DNA of 64,000 nt from Octopus vulgaris (lineage: Eukaryota), in the NCBI GenBank assembly GCA_951406725.2, contig OX597822.1:115444001-115508000 (forward strand), given 5' to 3'. Of this stretch, positions 6,739 to 63,580 are shown in pieces (position 1 is the stretch's first letter; each line of letters starts with the position of its first letter). The notes beneath the pieces are model-generated. The model saw only the letters and a program-made list of their open reading frames with translations, made no database searches and was not told the DNA's origin. The position numbers were made by a program, and so were the translations under genes.

Positions 6739-7508
6739 TTAATGTAGGAAATTTTTTTATCAATGGCCAGCATATTAAAAAAATACCTTTAAAGGTTAAA
6801 ATTATAAACAACTTATAAATAAGGGCAAACGAAAAAATTTCTTATGCCGAAAATTGGACATATTGTCTATTACCATATAATTTTTCACAATATGCACGCT
6901 ACTCGAAAAAAAAAACCGACAGAAATAGCGTGCATATTGTGAAAAATTATATGGTAATGGACAATATGTCCAAATTTTCGGCATATTTGACATTAGAAAT
7001 TTTTTCGTTTGCCCTTATTTATAAGTTGTTTATAATTTTAACCTTTAAAGGTATTTTTTAATATGCTGGCCATTGATAAAACATTTTTTTTTCGAAAACA
7101 TTTTATCCTACATAAATATAAATTTGTGTTCACTTCCGGACTCTCTCATTCTATGAGAGCCTCAGTTCAAATCGCGCGTGTCTTGAATGGGATGGAGTAT
7201 TTCTATTTTGGATGTATTTGGGGTACTTAGTTGTGCTCATGACTTAGTGTTTGCTTCTTCCATGGGTGCGAGTAAGTATCTCATTTATTTCTTTTGCCAC
7301 ATGTACCACTGACGAAGGGAGGGTTCTTACGAACTAACCCTGAAATCGGTTCGATATGGTAATAATGGAATTTTTTAGAGATTTCTGTCGGTTTTTTTTC
7401 GAGTAGCGTGCGTACTGAAAAAAATTATATGGTAAATGGACAATATGTCAAAGTTTTCGGCATATTTGGCATTAGAAATTTTTTCGTTTGCCCTTATTTA
7501 TAAGTTAT
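6739..7508 (+). mobile_element. Non-coding Penelope pLTR-type element (inverted arm plus partial tandem copy) in a (TA)n tract
   Basis: 6755-6900 is the reverse complement of about 6926-7082. 7381-7508 repeats the same segment directly. Contains a hammerhead at 7304 and has (TA)n on both sides. Confidence 0.8.
7304..7361 (+). ncRNA. Type I hammerhead ribozyme, canonical core
   Basis: UACCA-CUGACGA-AGGG..(GGUUC uuac GAACU)..CCCU-GAAA-UCG guu CGA-UA-UGGUA. All three stems pair. AUA triplet, predicted cleavage after 7356. Confidence 0.85.
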
Positions 7509-7583
7509 ATATATATATATATATATATATATATATATATATATATATATATATATATATATATATATATATACATGTATATA

Positions 7584-9800
7584 TAAGTTCAGCAAAATTT
7601 AGATTCAAATGAATATGGTACTTAAGTTAGATGCACCAGAATATTGTATGGTGTTATCCATATAAATCCGTGGGGTGATTATAATCAAAATAAGCAATAT
7701 GAATAACTTCGGTAATTTGGTATGATCGTTTCGCACTACATCATTTTATTAAATGTTGTAAGTATTACAATAGTATTAAAATGCTGAGCACTCATCAGCC
7801 ATTAATAGGTTTTCCATTAATACATCATTTTCATATCAAGTGATAACATTATAGAGAAGGTGGATATATAGACAAAGATGTGGATTAAAATTTTAAGAAC
7901 ATTTAAGATAGTGGAGTTTATCAACTGACTGAAGAATATTCAGTTGCTATGAACTGCTAGAAGGTTCTGCGAAGAATGGACAAATGAAAGGAAACAAGAA
8001 AGATTTTCTATTTATAGAAATAGGGGTGAAATAGATGTCAAAGTTCCATATAAAGAAATTTAGGTAGAGAGAAAAGGATTGTCACATTACGATGCCTATT
8101 ACTACTATTTGGCAAACAGATTTAGCATTAGGAAAACTAGGTTAATGTCAAATGGTTATAATGACCACTCATAGAGAATGCAGAGATTTTTTTAAACTTA
8201 TATACATCAACTTTATAATTAGCTGATAGGTTTTGAGTATTTTGATACGTTGGATTAAAGGAAAAATTATAAATCTAATATTTATTCAATTTAGAGAAAA
8301 ATCTATCACTTATTATGAGTAGGCATAATACTTATTAATTGGGGACAAAATCTTATTAATCAAGTGAATATATTAGGGGTCAAATATATATAATAGGAAA
8401 AATAGAAGAGGAGTAATCAAAGAAGAAAGGTATTCGTAGGTTTAGTAGAAGGTGATTTAATAATATGAAGGGAAGTAATTTAGAAGAGTAAATTACTCAG
8501 ATTTCATAGTGAATTGTTATTAATGAATTAAAATATAGAATCTGTTAGAAATAATATTTACTACCCGCGGAGAAAGGCTAATTAGTTAGGTAAAAATATC
8601 CTAGGTTAATGATATATTAAGAAGTGAGATAATCAAGGTGAACCGAATAGTTTCTTTAGGGACATAGAATTTATACTATTTAGTGTAGGAGAATTTTAAA
8701 AAAAGGGATAATTTAATTCTAAGTTTGCAAAGAAGTTTTATAGTAATCTATGTATGTTGAATTAAAAACCAGTATGGTATATTCATTGTTATTTGGGTAT
8801 AAAGAATTAAAACTTGAAAAATTTAGGAATATTCACAATATTATTATTTAAAATATTTAAACGTACGGGTTGTGCGATGTATGCAAGATGCTCCTAGCTC
8901 CGAACGGTTATTTAACAGATTTGTATTACTCCGATGTTTTAAAATTTCATATGTTTCCATAGAACAAAGTTCACAACCATCTCTACTATTTTTATAAGGC
9001 CGTACTTTTCTTACTATATCCCATTTCAGGTTGAATTCTATATTATTCGTTTTCAGTTCCCAAATTTTACTAGACAATGTTGTGCAACCTGCTTTGTGTT
9101 TGAGCCTAAAGGAAGAAAAATGATTGTTTAAACGTTTTTTTTAATCTACCGAACAACCGAAATAAAGATAGTTGTTATTTGAAGTTATTATTGTACATTT
9201 ATAAATCACATTTTGGACCGAACAAAGGCCAGATAACGGACATTTCGATCTAATCCTACAATTACAACTGGGGGGGGGGGGATAATTTCCAGTACTAGTA
9301 TCATTTAAGGACAGTTCAAATTTATTTCTGTTATTTGAGTTGTTATTAGTAATAGGGTTATTTTCTCTAATAGTAGTTACATTGTTATACAAACTGGGGT
9401 TACTAGTTATTAATCCATCCTCATTATCATCACCTACTACACTTTTATCTATACTACCTATATCATTGATGTTGTTATTATCACTATTTGTATTAATGTT
9501 GTTGTTATTATTATTATTATCATCATCATCATCATCATCATTATTATTATTATTATTATTATTATTATTATTATTACCATTATTATCATTATTATTATTA
9601 TCATTATTATTATTATTATTATTGCTATTTTTATTATTATTTCTATTATTGTTGTTGTTACTATTCATTCTATCCCTAGCTAACTTAGTAATTTTGCTAT
9701 TAAGTCTAGCTATTATGGTAACCATATTTGTGAGAGTAGAATATGATATTCTTACTGATTTCCTAGAAATTATTTTATAATATTTATGGGAGGCCAAACA
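7584..9800 (-). mobile_element. 5'-truncated Penelope-like element: linker, GIY-YIG endonuclease and long 3' region
   Basis: ORFs 9141-9797 and 8844-9077 read VRISYSTLTNM, CNCRIRSKCPLSGLC, VIYKCTI..YFGC, LSSKIWELK, CELCSMETYEI, LLNNRSEL..CIH. One premature stop. Hammerhead motif near the 3' end. Confidence 0.85.
7714..7805 (-). ncRNA. Type I hammerhead motif with long stem II, slightly decayed
   Basis: Reverse strand AAUGG-CUGAUGA-GUGCU...AGUGC-GAAA-CGAUCA-UA-CCAAAUU. Stem III is one transition away from palindromic CGAUCG. Confidence 0.65.
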
Positions 9801-9805
9801 TGATA

Positions 9806-61125: not shown

Positions 61126-62967
61126 TCAGATATTAATGGGTGGAATTTATATCGGTTTAAAATTCTTGCCAAGTGCATTAAGCGTGTTGTGGTAACAGCC
61201 ACTTTACTATTTGTTTTACACACAGCGAGTGTCCATGGGATTTTCGAACCTCACCTCCTAACATCGTTATTATATGATATCAGTATCATATGATATCAAT
61301 GTAATGTAGTTAATAATAAATCATTTCTTTCAAGTTGAGTTGTTCCTATTTATTCTAAAATTCTTTCTAACGATATAAGGATGATTATAAGAATTTCAGT
61401 TCTTATATTTGTCCTTTATTTCCAATACTTACCAAAGATCAAGTTCAATCTCTCATTATACGCTCTGCACCACTTATTTTTTTAATCAACAAATTTACTC
61501 TTAAAATGTTCTGGCAGGTTCGAACGCAAATATACTACTCGCTGTTGTGTTCGTCACAGGAGAACAATTTCTTGTTGACAACGATTATGTGTTCATTATA
61601 CACTCGAACCATTAATACAAGGGATTCTCTGGAACACTGGAGTTTCGACATGTGTCTTGTCACCCAGAAATAACCGGATTAATGTATCTAATCCAGAGCC
61701 TATCGTATTGTCTATAATTTCAACAAACAAACTATTCGCTGATCAGTGCTGATATCTACCAGCTGTTAATAAATCGTTGTATTCCCGTTGAATAGATCCA
61801 AAATGATGCCTTGCTTATTTATTCTTGATACATTTAGGCAGATTCGAACATGAATATGCTAACCGCTGCTGTGTTCGTCAAAGAACAGATTCTCCTTTAG
61901 GGAAAAGAGGTCATCTGTCTTCTCATGTAGCATGTACAGGCCTCTCTCTCCCTCTCCTACTCTTTCTCTATCCCTCTCTCTTTATTTCTCTTTTTCGCTT
62001 TTTCTCCCTTTTCTCTCTCACACACACTTTTTTATTCCTCTCTTTCTTCAACTCTCAATTTTTTCACTCTCTCTCTCTCTCTCTCTCTCTCTCTCTTTCT
62101 CTCTCATTTTCTCGTATTCATTTCTTTCTGGCATTCAAATATACCTCAGTCTCATCTAAGACATATTTTCTGCGAAAAGAAAAGAAGAAATTCATTCCAT
62201 TTCTCCAACAACATCCCTCTTCAAACTTATCTACCGAATTGACATCCCTCTACTTTCGTATGAGCTCGTAAATATCGCCGTGGCGAGCACAAACATTAAA
62301 GTTAACTACGCTCCTCCTCTTCATAGGTGGCAGACTCCTGGCGATGAGGACGTCGAGCATTAAAACGAGGTGGACATATTGTCATGTTTAATAAAATCAA
62401 GATGGTTTCCATCGTTTGAAATTTGCCCAACACTCTAACAAATTACAAAACAAGAAATATCTTGACGCAAACTTGATTTTGTCATCTCATTAATAAAGAG
62501 GTAGTGGTGCTAAAAACTTCACTATTATTTGGTGTGAGATTTAGGGACAGGTATTTGTGAGTTTGAAAACAGCTGAATTACACAGTTCTTATTTATGATT
62601 TTAATGGAACCGAATAATTCCAGTCAGTTGCGCCGAATAGATGTCTGGCCGAAAGGAAATGCGTTGAGTTAAATATTACATCGATGTGTGGACTGCCGGT
62701 ATTTAGGGGCCAGGATATAATGTTAAGATTTAAGACCTAATCCGTATGGCCCCCTCCCCATTTTAAAGGCTGCGTGGAAGTTATTGAGGGAGCTATGGAA
62801 GTTAAATTGACAAGGTAAAACATTTACAAACTCTATCTCTCCCTCCCTATACATAGTTTAGAGTCCCGTTAAGGTAAGAGCTAAACAAAATAAAGTACGA
62901 CACCGAGTGAGAAATAAATGTTCAATGTACATAAAATTACATATATATATATATATATATATATATA

Positions 62968-63360
62968 CTAGCAGTATCGCCCGGCGTTGCTCGGGTTTGT
63001 AAGGGAAATAACTATATAAGCATTTTTAGAGATGTAAAGTATAATAGCCATCTCAATATGGCTAACCACAAAGGAGGGGTGTTACTGTAGCTTTTTTCGT
63101 TCTGAGATTTAATAAAAAATATTTAGAGAGTTACTTCCCTTATATATGCCAAAAATGCATTAAAATGGGAAAAATTGATGGTAAATTTTTTTAAATCGTA
63201 GACTCATCGTAGACGCGCGCTAATACCCAGAAGGGCTCGATATGAATTACGACTATAAGATACCCGGTTTTGGTTAAACTGCACCGCAAAATGTGGAACT
63301 AGTTAGGAATCTAAATCGCAGGAGACAGACAGCACACAACCTCATTTTTATATATAAAGA
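62968..63360 (-). mobile_element. Complete non-autonomous Helitron
   Basis: Minus strand begins A|TCTTTATATATAAAA and ends cccgagcaacgccggg hairpin + cgatactgCTAG|T. No TSD, inserted in (TA)n. Confidence 0.85.
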
Positions 63361-63400
63361 TATATATATATATATATATATATATATATATATATATATA

Positions 63401-63580
63401 ACAAAGTGATGTTGCAAGGTACCGCACGAGTGGAAATATATATGAAAGAAGGTTTGAAAATACAATTTTAAAGGTGTTTATTCACTTGACCGGTTTCTCT
63501 TTTTTCTTTTTCTAAAAAAGTGAAACCGGTCAAGTGAATAAACATCTTTAAAATTGTATTTTCAAGCCTTCTTTCATATA
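63401..63580. mobile_element. Palindromic TA-flanked element, same family as 1-48 and 770-860
   Basis: Arms atatgaaagaagg..ttcacttgaccggtttc and gaaaccggtcaagtgaa..ccttctttcatat; shares taaacatcttt.aaattg.attttcaa.ccttctttc with 779-814. Confidence 0.85.

Follow-up and report, generated by a model that had tools for sequence, protein, structure and literature searches.

The 64,000-nucleotide stretch of Octopus vulgaris DNA analysed here (the window, to which all positions refer) contains real hammerhead motifs, most of which are ordinary ends of Penelope-like elements (PLEs), and a swapped G3-C8 core is found in a coding family with thousands of copies. We consider it probable that the motifs are PLE hammerheads at the ends of mostly truncated copies and that the G3-C8 family (family D) is a coding PLE, whose short copies likely stem from a reverse transcriptase (RT) starting inside the open reading frame (ORF) and running off the capped 5' end of the uncut transcript.

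Hammerhead motifs in the window and in the genome

Seven motifs had been named in a preliminary description of the window, and core position 3 of these lies at 7309 (+), 7798 (-), 12061 (+), 13590 (-), 24535 (-), 53300 (-) and 15006 (-). The coordinates given previously are motif edges and not core positions; the letters assigned to core positions 3 and 8 were correct in all seven cases. A type I descriptor (stem I of at least 4, stem II of at least 3) was passed by four of the seven, 7309 and 12061 with C/G and 13590 and 24535 with G/C, while 7798, 53300 and 15006 failed; these three belong to repeat families, of which they are decayed or atypical members. The scan of the window yielded five matches (mean of 1.15 in 40 shuffles), and tighter settings yielded three (0.1 in shuffles). 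The fifth match, at 30521, is probably due to chance, and a match at 8233 was also taken as chance. The earlier count of at least nine type I motifs is reached only if three weaker hammerhead-shaped motifs are added, namely a C3-G8 motif (57280..57375, core 57363, -) inside the fold-back 57171-57760, a motif with a 2-nt loop II (61620..61672, core 61663, -) and one at 4747 (+). For the first two, no relative was found in the 1.9 Mb compared. The Watson-Crick complementarity of positions 3 and 8, said to be kept each time, holds for the seven named motifs but not for 61663, which has G3/A8. In an Rfam scan of the window with 407 matches, the best 150 included no hammerhead and were nearly all microRNA models driven by microsatellite sequence. 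Pfam searches with six ORFs of the window gave an unrelated LINE RT as the sole match, and the PLE remnants described below were located by tblastn.

The enrichment of hammerheads over shuffled sequence is real genome-wide. In a blind sample of 800 kb, 25 descriptor matches were found compared to 3.6 after shuffling, and the 18 strong motifs (0.4 in shuffled sequence) all had a Watson-Crick pair at 3-8. Such a pair is present in 117 of 124 strong matches and absent from the other seven. The core letters with a Watson-Crick 3-8 pair, the GAAA and a NUH cut site are found in families A, C, D and E, and the sequences of the hammerhead families do not align with each other. The proposed covariation of the 3-8 pair exists between families and not among the copies of one family. 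Since the G3-C8 core is confined to a single lineage and the U3-A8 core, found in three or four lineages, had already been published, few independent events lie behind it. In some families C7-G8 forms a CpG, and the change from G8 to A8 may thus come from decay.

Family D is the terminal region of a coding Penelope-like element

The G3-C8 motif of family D has 4,810 exact matches in the genome. Among 100 listed matches of the family, positions 3 and 8 read G/C in 96 and C/G in none. In the window, the family is represented by a fold-back with TA runs on both sides (13495..13739, core 13590, -; short arm 13495-13541, long arm and tail 13591-13739) and by a copy at 24138..24584 (core 24535, -), which has a short inverted 5' piece (to 24584) and is split by an intervening sequence of about 210 nt (24254-24466). 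A further fold-back of the family (44571..44754) lacks the hammerhead core.

Family D forms the terminal part of an autonomous PLE. At the locus L318, a stop-to-stop frame of 1,025 codons is followed 1.0 kb downstream by the G3-C8 motif, and the same order of ORF and motif was observed at L319, L320 and L321. At L320, a tandem copy, the tail continues directly into the ORF, as in the partial tandem of a pLTR. The C-terminus of the protein matches the Pfam GIY-YIG model (E 1.6e-5). No direct match of this protein to an RT profile was obtained in Pfam, NCBIfam or PDB; its RT motifs align with the RT of another PLE (E 2e-9), which in turn matches a group II RT model (E 7.6e-6). The parent of family D has the features that characterise EN+ PLEs, with RT and, at the C-terminus, GIY-YIG encoded in one long ORF, and with the inverted 5'-truncated copy and the tail on one side. 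Of 25 elements, 14 carry an inverted partner and 14 are flanked by TA. The parent appears to be a young element with a near-intact ORF. From its motifs we take it, as a guess, to be Nematis-like.

A sister PLE, whose protein is 54.7% identical to that of family D over 815 aa, carries a similar motif with a C3-G8 core and a compensatory change in stem II; this motif has a C at position 9 and may be crippled itself. In family D, the rest of the core is intact, as are both stems and the palindrome, and the predicted cut triplet is UUU. Loop II varies among the subfamilies, whereas stem II is preserved, and about 16 of 100 rows show a variant of stem I that retains a G-U pair. Stem III consists of A-U pairs only. 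In the predicted fold of the monomer, stems I and II form and stem III is open, and it is still unformed in the predicted dimer. No natural G3-C8 hammerhead was encountered in the literature surveyed.

Short copies of family D probably originate from uncut RNA

The tandem copy defines the order of the start (+1), the core (about +22), the predicted cut (+60), the ATG (about +125, that is, about 65 nt past the predicted cut), the copy ends at +145-150 and +205-208, and the ORF. The 3' ends of 75 arms are bimodal (+145-154 in 31, +200-208 in 37), and the two ends lie about 60 nt apart inside the start of the ORF. The 5' ends fall within -5 to +4 in 34 of the 75 arms, a set that is biased towards long 5' ends because part of it was picked for an intact core, and that includes some local duplicates. 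At position -1, a tally by eye of the 100 listed matches gives 61 G, 26 C (the base expected from the template), 7 A and 6 T; the underlying search pattern excluded full upstream-extended copies (443 exact matches). A binomial test of the excess of G gives 1.7e-21 at p=0.18, and about 12 of the 61 cases could be explained by the inverted arm, leaving 49 of 62. Upstream of -1, the listed copies have unrelated letters. A corresponding G peak was not seen among 74 matches of family C (12061). The sequence preceding +1 resembles a branch point and 3' splice site, and the boundary might thus be a splice junction.

The predicted cut site is crossed by at least 9 nt in 95 of 100 copies (assessed by eye, in copies selected on their 3' part), and no peak of copy ends was found at this site, where one of the 100 copies ends exactly. 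Thus, the G3-C8 copies did not originate by cleavage and circularisation. Few copies are folded back at stem I (33 versus 4,810 exact matches).

The PLE protein would nick AT-rich DNA and prime at two sites just inside the ORF, on two templates, leaving one copy in direct and one in inverted orientation, with a tail of about 60 nt on one side. Position +1 would correspond to the polymerase II start and the additional G at -1 to the copied cap. The formation of stem III presumably needs a partner molecule or a protein, and cleavage would be slow. The ribozyme would not be the step that defines the inserted template. However, the 3-8 pair appears to have been kept through the swap in the master lineage, which suggests that the ribozyme still serves the RNA of the element in some way.

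A more detailed version of this scenario can be put forward tentatively, as a serious possibility rather than as the expected outcome. In this version, the hammerhead of family D, carried by a young autonomous PLE, would have a G3-C8 core that is both natural and fixed, whereas previous descriptions of this core are limited to an engineered rescue mutant. The thousands of 150-208 nt copies would be strong-stop-like cDNAs recording the cap and both RT start sites, and cleavage at +60 would remove the capped leader in a regulatory step distinct from insertion.

Other hammerhead families and the question of independent elements

Family A (6739..7505, +) lies between TA runs and consists of an inverted partial copy (about 6749-6920) and a non-coding unit of 477 nt in partial tandem, and its hammerhead (core 7309, +) has a C3-G8 core and a 4-bp stem III. 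A fixed tail-to-head junction with the 477-nt period is present at several loci, and each occurrence comprises 1.2-1.4 units and an inverted copy. Two complete ribozymes in direct tandem were not found across the seven family A loci mapped, and no ORF linked to the family was found. An ORF near family A at the locus L137 was rejected as the parent because a TA run lies in between and the ORF belongs to the sister PLE. Of the families in the window, family A is the only one that looks retrozyme-like. Outside of the window, the locus L031 holds a true tandem retrozyme-like array (about 355 nt). Repeated non-coding units that all contain a complete hammerhead are present at L031 but not in families B, C and D, nor at the seven mapped loci of family A.

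Several motifs of the window are associated with PLE remnants. A 5'-truncated remnant (7575..9791, -) comprises the C-terminal endonuclease region (8850-9791) and the 3' UTR, together with a C3-G8 hammerhead (core 7798) whose stem III, the palindrome ACGATCGT in relatives, has decayed. Family C (11134..12345, core 12061, +) consists of an endonuclease remnant (11134-11406), the 3' UTR and a C3-G8 hammerhead with the stem III palindrome ACAUAUGU. An RT and endonuclease remnant (27482..30196, +) with an inverted 5'-truncated copy (27482-28567, -) is followed by the 5' half of a hammerhead core at 30589. The U3-A8 core occurs in family E (53165..53499, core 53300, -), which has the stem III palindrome ACCGGU and a stem I of 3 bp throughout the family; of 25 loci, 24 have U3-A8, including one that carries an additional base, and none has C-G, and relatives show an inverted copy and a tail of about 30 nt. 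Family F (14868..15205, core 15006, -), a hammerhead-like motif with TA flanks and a short inverted copy (15162-15205), has U3-A8 in all 25 loci and AGCGCT as the palindrome of stem III in 20 of 25. Its stems are atypical, with a proximal stem I of 2 bp and a stem II closed by a mismatch. Family H is represented by a fold-back containing the 3' hammerhead half only, present twice (63400..63582), and by a copy lacking the 3' half of the core (574..858, +), which lies outside the span described previously; in longer relatives the core is U3-A8 and stem II is imperfect. Two fold-backs within that span, 44571-44754 and 63400-63582, have no complete core. Inverted arms, found at 7309, 13590, 24535 and 15006, were not seen at 7798, 12061 and 53300.

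It had been proposed that the motifs are PLE-type hammerheads with a palindromic stem III that are linked to PLEs, and this is supported. The further proposal of a set of non-autonomous, retrozyme-like elements is not supported as a whole, as family D is the end of an autonomous PLE and 7798 and 12061 follow PLE endonuclease remnants. We regard it as unlikely that the short copies are independent non-autonomous elements, SINE- or retrozyme-like, with their own internal promoter and mobilised in trans by the PLE protein, with family A spreading via a 477-nt RNA, tandem or circular, that its hammerhead cuts. The motifs of families B, C and D are physically linked to sequence that encodes PLE proteins, the short copies of family D share subfamily variants with the long ones, a head-to-tail tandem unit was not seen among 60 family D loci, and the 3' ends of the short copies lie within the ORF start with the cut site spanned. 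The fixed junction of family A with no linked ORF found, its 4-bp stem III, the arrays at L031, the numerical excess of short over long family D copies (4,810 versus 443 exact matches) and the internal promoter of Penelope (PMC2377424) would be in line with such independent elements.

Is the G3-C8 motif a ribozyme?

Two pair-restoring transversions are improbable without selection, and together with the otherwise intact core, stems and palindrome, the stem II kept despite changes in loop II, the G-U pair of the stem I variant and the Watson-Crick pairing of most strong matches (117 of 124), this argues against a dead motif. There is a low probability, in our view, that the motif is dead or non-catalytic, being a protein-binding or promoter element or a hitch-hiker, with the 3-8 pair as a relic or a product of chance. 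This would agree with copies deriving from uncut RNA, an A-U-only stem III that is open in the predicted monomer and unformed in the dimer, the G-C core as a single evolutionary event, the CpG at C7-G8 in some families, from which A8 could arise by decay, and the finding that insertion in vitro proceeds without cleavage (PMC11167929). Finally, it is barely conceivable that the fold-backs represent DNA transposons of the MITE type, with terminal inverted repeats that form a hammerhead-like loop by accident. Their long inverted arms, TA context and small size might suggest this, but the sequence runs on into the PLE ORF, which largely refutes it. The arms are also unequal, the tail is on either side, junctions vary by copy and 11 of 25 elements have no inverted arm. 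Symmetric terminal inverted repeats with uniform ends were not observed, and the fold-backs have a PLE as their parent.

Comparison with known systems

The motifs resemble the minimal hammerheads in the pLTRs of metazoan PLEs (Cervera and de la Pena 2014, PMC4209133) as far as these are described in the sections of that paper available to us. Both have type I topology with a palindromic minimal stem III, an extra base between 9 and 10.1 and a short stem I, and in both cases many dissimilar families exist per genome, mainly as solo truncated copies with some opposite-strand pairs. The U3-A8 core was reported there in 2014, with about 1,300 matches in Schistosoma, and G3-C8 is not among the variants in these sections. 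Several families described here differ by long stem II loops or a stem III of 4-6 bp. A compensatory 3-8 change to U3-A8 is also known from a survey of natural core variants, the accessible part of which does not name G3-C8 (Perreault et al. 2011, PMC3088659).

According to the accessible part of the report on Poseidon PAc of Anolis (Frangieh et al. 2024, PMC11167929), this element initiates internally at two sites and shows cleavage at ATT, its ribozyme cleaves with the assistance of the protein, the C3G/G8C double mutant gives a partial rescue, and unprocessed RNA is used, ribozyme cleavage being dispensable for insertion in vitro. Poseidon PAc and family D have in common a hammerhead adjoining the ORF start, two copy ends within the start of the ORF that define the tail, ends at AAT or ATT, and uncut RNA as the template. 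In family D, however, the tail is about 60 nt long and not 30-40, the ATG follows about 65 nt after the cut and does not lie inside stem II, and G3-C8 is natural and not engineered. Moreover, the sharp 5' start and the extra G of family D are not described for Poseidon PAc in the same part of the report (PMC11167929).

Complex insertions of EN+ PLEs comprise a pLTR, an inverted 5'-truncated copy and a tail, with a bias for microsatellites (Craig et al. 2021, PMC8557442). Partial tandems, an adjoining inverted copy, the one-sided tail, TA-repeat targets and the C-terminal GIY-YIG domain are shared with the elements described here, whereas family D most often yields units of 150-208 nt whose 5' ends favour one start, and not products of random 5' truncation. 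Like non-LTR retrozymes (Cervera and de la Pena 2020, PMC7229834; Li et al. 2026, 10.64898/2026.07.22.740005), family A and L031 consist of non-coding repeats that are a few hundred bases long and contain a type I hammerhead. In contrast to those arrays of two complete tandem ribozymes, family A has 1.2-1.4 units and an inverted copy, and coding PLEs are linked to families B, C and D.

Implications for the role of PLE hammerheads

Searches that require CUGANGA miss the variants, as had been predicted, and descriptors fixed on C3-G8 overlook large families. Family D supplies a near-intact ORF, exact predicted positions of the start, the cut and priming, and thousands of genomic products. If the more detailed version of the scenario is true, cleavage at +60 would strip a capped leader from the transcript, independent of insertion. 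For the role of PLE hammerheads, the sister pair with C3-G8 and G3-C8 cores provides natural evidence that the tertiary pair of the active site stayed under selection. As the inserted copies come from uncut RNA, this selection suggests that the ribozyme acts on the fate or the translation of the RNA rather than in the production of the template.

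Hammerhead motifs and pairing at core positions 3 and 8

The host genome of the window comprises 2.8 Gb and is rich in microsatellites. With a descriptor of the type I hammerhead that leaves core positions 3 and 8 free, five matches were found in the window as compared with 1.15 in 40 block shuffles, and stricter settings yielded three matches versus 0.1. Four of the five had already been named in the preliminary description, namely the motifs with core position 3 at 7309 and 12061 (C-G) and at 13590 and 24535 (G-C). The descriptor rejected the named motifs at 7798, 53300 and 15006, yet all three are members of repeat families. 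Stem III of 7798 is decayed, while it is palindromic in its relatives; 53300 reads U3-A8 with a stem I of 3 bp across 25 loci, and 15006 reads U3-A8 in 25/25 loci, with weak stems and a palindrome in 20 of them. The claimed total of at least nine motifs is reached only by adding the weaker 57363, 4747 or 61663, the last of which has a G3/A8 core. The core at 4747 is decayed, hammerhead-like and part of the fold-back at 4343-4859; in the fold-backs at 14594-14799, 31128-31258 and 57897-58396 no core was seen.

The excess over shuffled sequence was also evident in a blind sample of 80 stretches of 10 kb chosen regardless of content, 20 of which adjoin the window (25 matches versus 3.6; strong matches 18 versus 0.4). 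All 18 strong matches are Watson-Crick at 3-8 (15 C-G, 2 U-A, 1 G-C), and they collapse to about eight families once tandem and inverted copies are merged. A wider set of 1.9 Mb, which is enriched for targeted loci, contained 124 strong matches versus 2.7 in shuffled sequence; 117 of these are Watson-Crick and seven are not (3 U-G, 2 G-G, 1 A-G, 1 A-C). They form 16 clusters. Twelve are C-G, one of these including a U-G copy, and the remaining four comprise single G-C, U-A and mixed clusters plus an A-G singleton. Families E (53300), F (15006) and H (fold-backs 574..858 and 63400..63582) are additional U-A lineages beyond the reach of the descriptor. Thus, of the proposed covariation, the Watson-Crick pairing is genuine, yet G-C represents a single event and the cells are not independent.

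Other families and neighbouring elements

The idea of a retrozyme-like set of elements applies to family A (7309), the sole such element in the window, but not to families B (7798) and C (12061), which follow remnants of Penelope-like element (PLE) endonucleases located at 8850-9791 (B) and 11134-11406 (C). In family A, a 477-nt unit is repeated as a partial tandem whose junction is fixed, an inverted copy is also present, and the core is C3-G8 in the 12/12 loci displayed. The family C core reads CUGAUGA in 19/20 loci. As judged by eye, the inverted copy of family E falls short of the direct end by about 30 nt in 7/25 loci.

Several other elements were observed. A retrozyme-like tandem array lies at L031:3076-4550 and on its minus strand (G000:C1, ~20.00 Mb); it is built of ~355-nt units, and every unit contains a canonical C3-G8 hammerhead of type I. 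A close relative with a U3-A8 core is located near 2942 of L287. The inverted or tandem elements at L039:7600-8200 and L331:7560-8150 carry canonical-looking hammerheads with a stem II of 4 bp, a CAAUA-type loop and a U3-A8 core (5/5 of the cluster). L322 (G000:C5, 115.84 Mb) and L323 (C1, 59.39 Mb) belong to a PLE family that is very young and has open frames of 1,312 codons; many of its copies have identical search scores, and its hammerhead carries C at position 9. Two further PLE families with long open frames (L227:5600-7501 and L228:2927-5365) lie near or beside family D copies, and PLEs frequently nest within one another's TA flanks. The window also contains LINE-type reverse transcriptase fragments at 3010-3877 (Pfam RVT_1) and 48314-48841, and, at 26293-27120, a non-autonomous, Mariner-like DNA transposon whose long ends are inverted and which has relatives in the sample.

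A PLE family with a G3-C8 core

The G3-C8 motif of family D (13590 and 24535) has 4,810 exact matches in the genome, whereas its reversed control has none. Among the first 100 of these matches listed, the core letters are G/C in 96, T/C in two, G/G in one and G/T in one, and none reads C/G. In four contig runs under three organism labels, no alternative letter reached 10% at either position. Copies extended upstream (443 exact matches) run via a 3' UTR of about 1 kb to a coding region. At L318, the motif lies 1.0 kb past the stop of a 1,025-codon frame that contains RT motifs and, at its C-terminus, a GIY-YIG; the first ~25 codons of this frame derive from an inverted arm. About 40 genomic matches share 92-100% identity over a 94-aa probe, which marks the family as young. 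A sister PLE, 54.7% identical over 815 aa, has a comparable motif in which the core is C3-G8, position 9 is C and stem II shows a compensatory pair. In the predicted monomer fold of the G3-C8 motif, stems I and II are formed and stem III is open, as expected of a ribozyme requiring a partner or protein. The copy at 24535 is interrupted by an insertion at 24254-24466 that includes degenerate TTAGGG-like repeats.

Origin of the short family D copies

The short copies share a 5' start (+1), and 34 of 75 arms, a set partly selected for an intact core, begin at -5..+4. Their 3' ends fall at +145-154 (31 arms) and +200-208 (37 arms), both sites lying within the ORF start, at AAT. In the tandem copy L320, the ATG is located about 125 nt downstream of the common 5' end and the sequence past the tail runs on in the reading frame of the ORF. 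Among the first 100 listed of 664 matches starting at +1, tallied by eye, 61 have G immediately before the start, of which about 12 possibly stem from the inverted arm; the element's own base is C, and the letters further upstream are unrelated. Such an extra G is a signature known from LINE-1 work. It is not a general feature because family C showed no G peak. Out of 8,925 matches, 100 copies selected solely by the sequence 3' of the predicted cut were inspected by eye; 95 extend at least 9 nt beyond the cut and one stops exactly there. An inverted arm and a TA flank were each found in 14/25 elements, whether the direct or the inverted arm bears the tail varies between elements, and several of the 25 have short direct target duplications.

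These features suggest that transcription starts at +1, although the 5' boundary could alternatively be a splice acceptor. On this model, the element protein would prime at those two of its internal sites that lie closest to the 5' end, copying up to the cap, opposite which the extra base may be added; both the inverted arm and the tail on one side would result from a second priming event. This scheme agrees with how PAc behaves in vitro (PMC11167929). The short copies appear, from their sequence ends, to record the cap and the priming sites.

Relation to known hammerheads

Literature searches yielded neither hammerheads in octopus PLEs nor a natural G3-C8 hammerhead; the work of Lunse et al. 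2017, on exactly such variants, was outside that search, and the novelty of the natural core is uncertain. In the portions consulted of the literature compared (PMC4209133, PMC11167929, PMC8557442, PMC3088659, PMC2377424, PMC7229834, PMC6765202, PMC3884650, PMC6962438, 10.64898/2026.07.22.740005), G3-C8 occurs only as an engineered variant. Overall, the feature is real and mostly corresponds to what is known of PLE hammerheads and of how PLEs insert. Judged from sequence, the natural G3-C8 core carried by an autonomous family, together with the short copies that seem to preserve cap and priming positions, makes it a candidate new variant worth a bench test.
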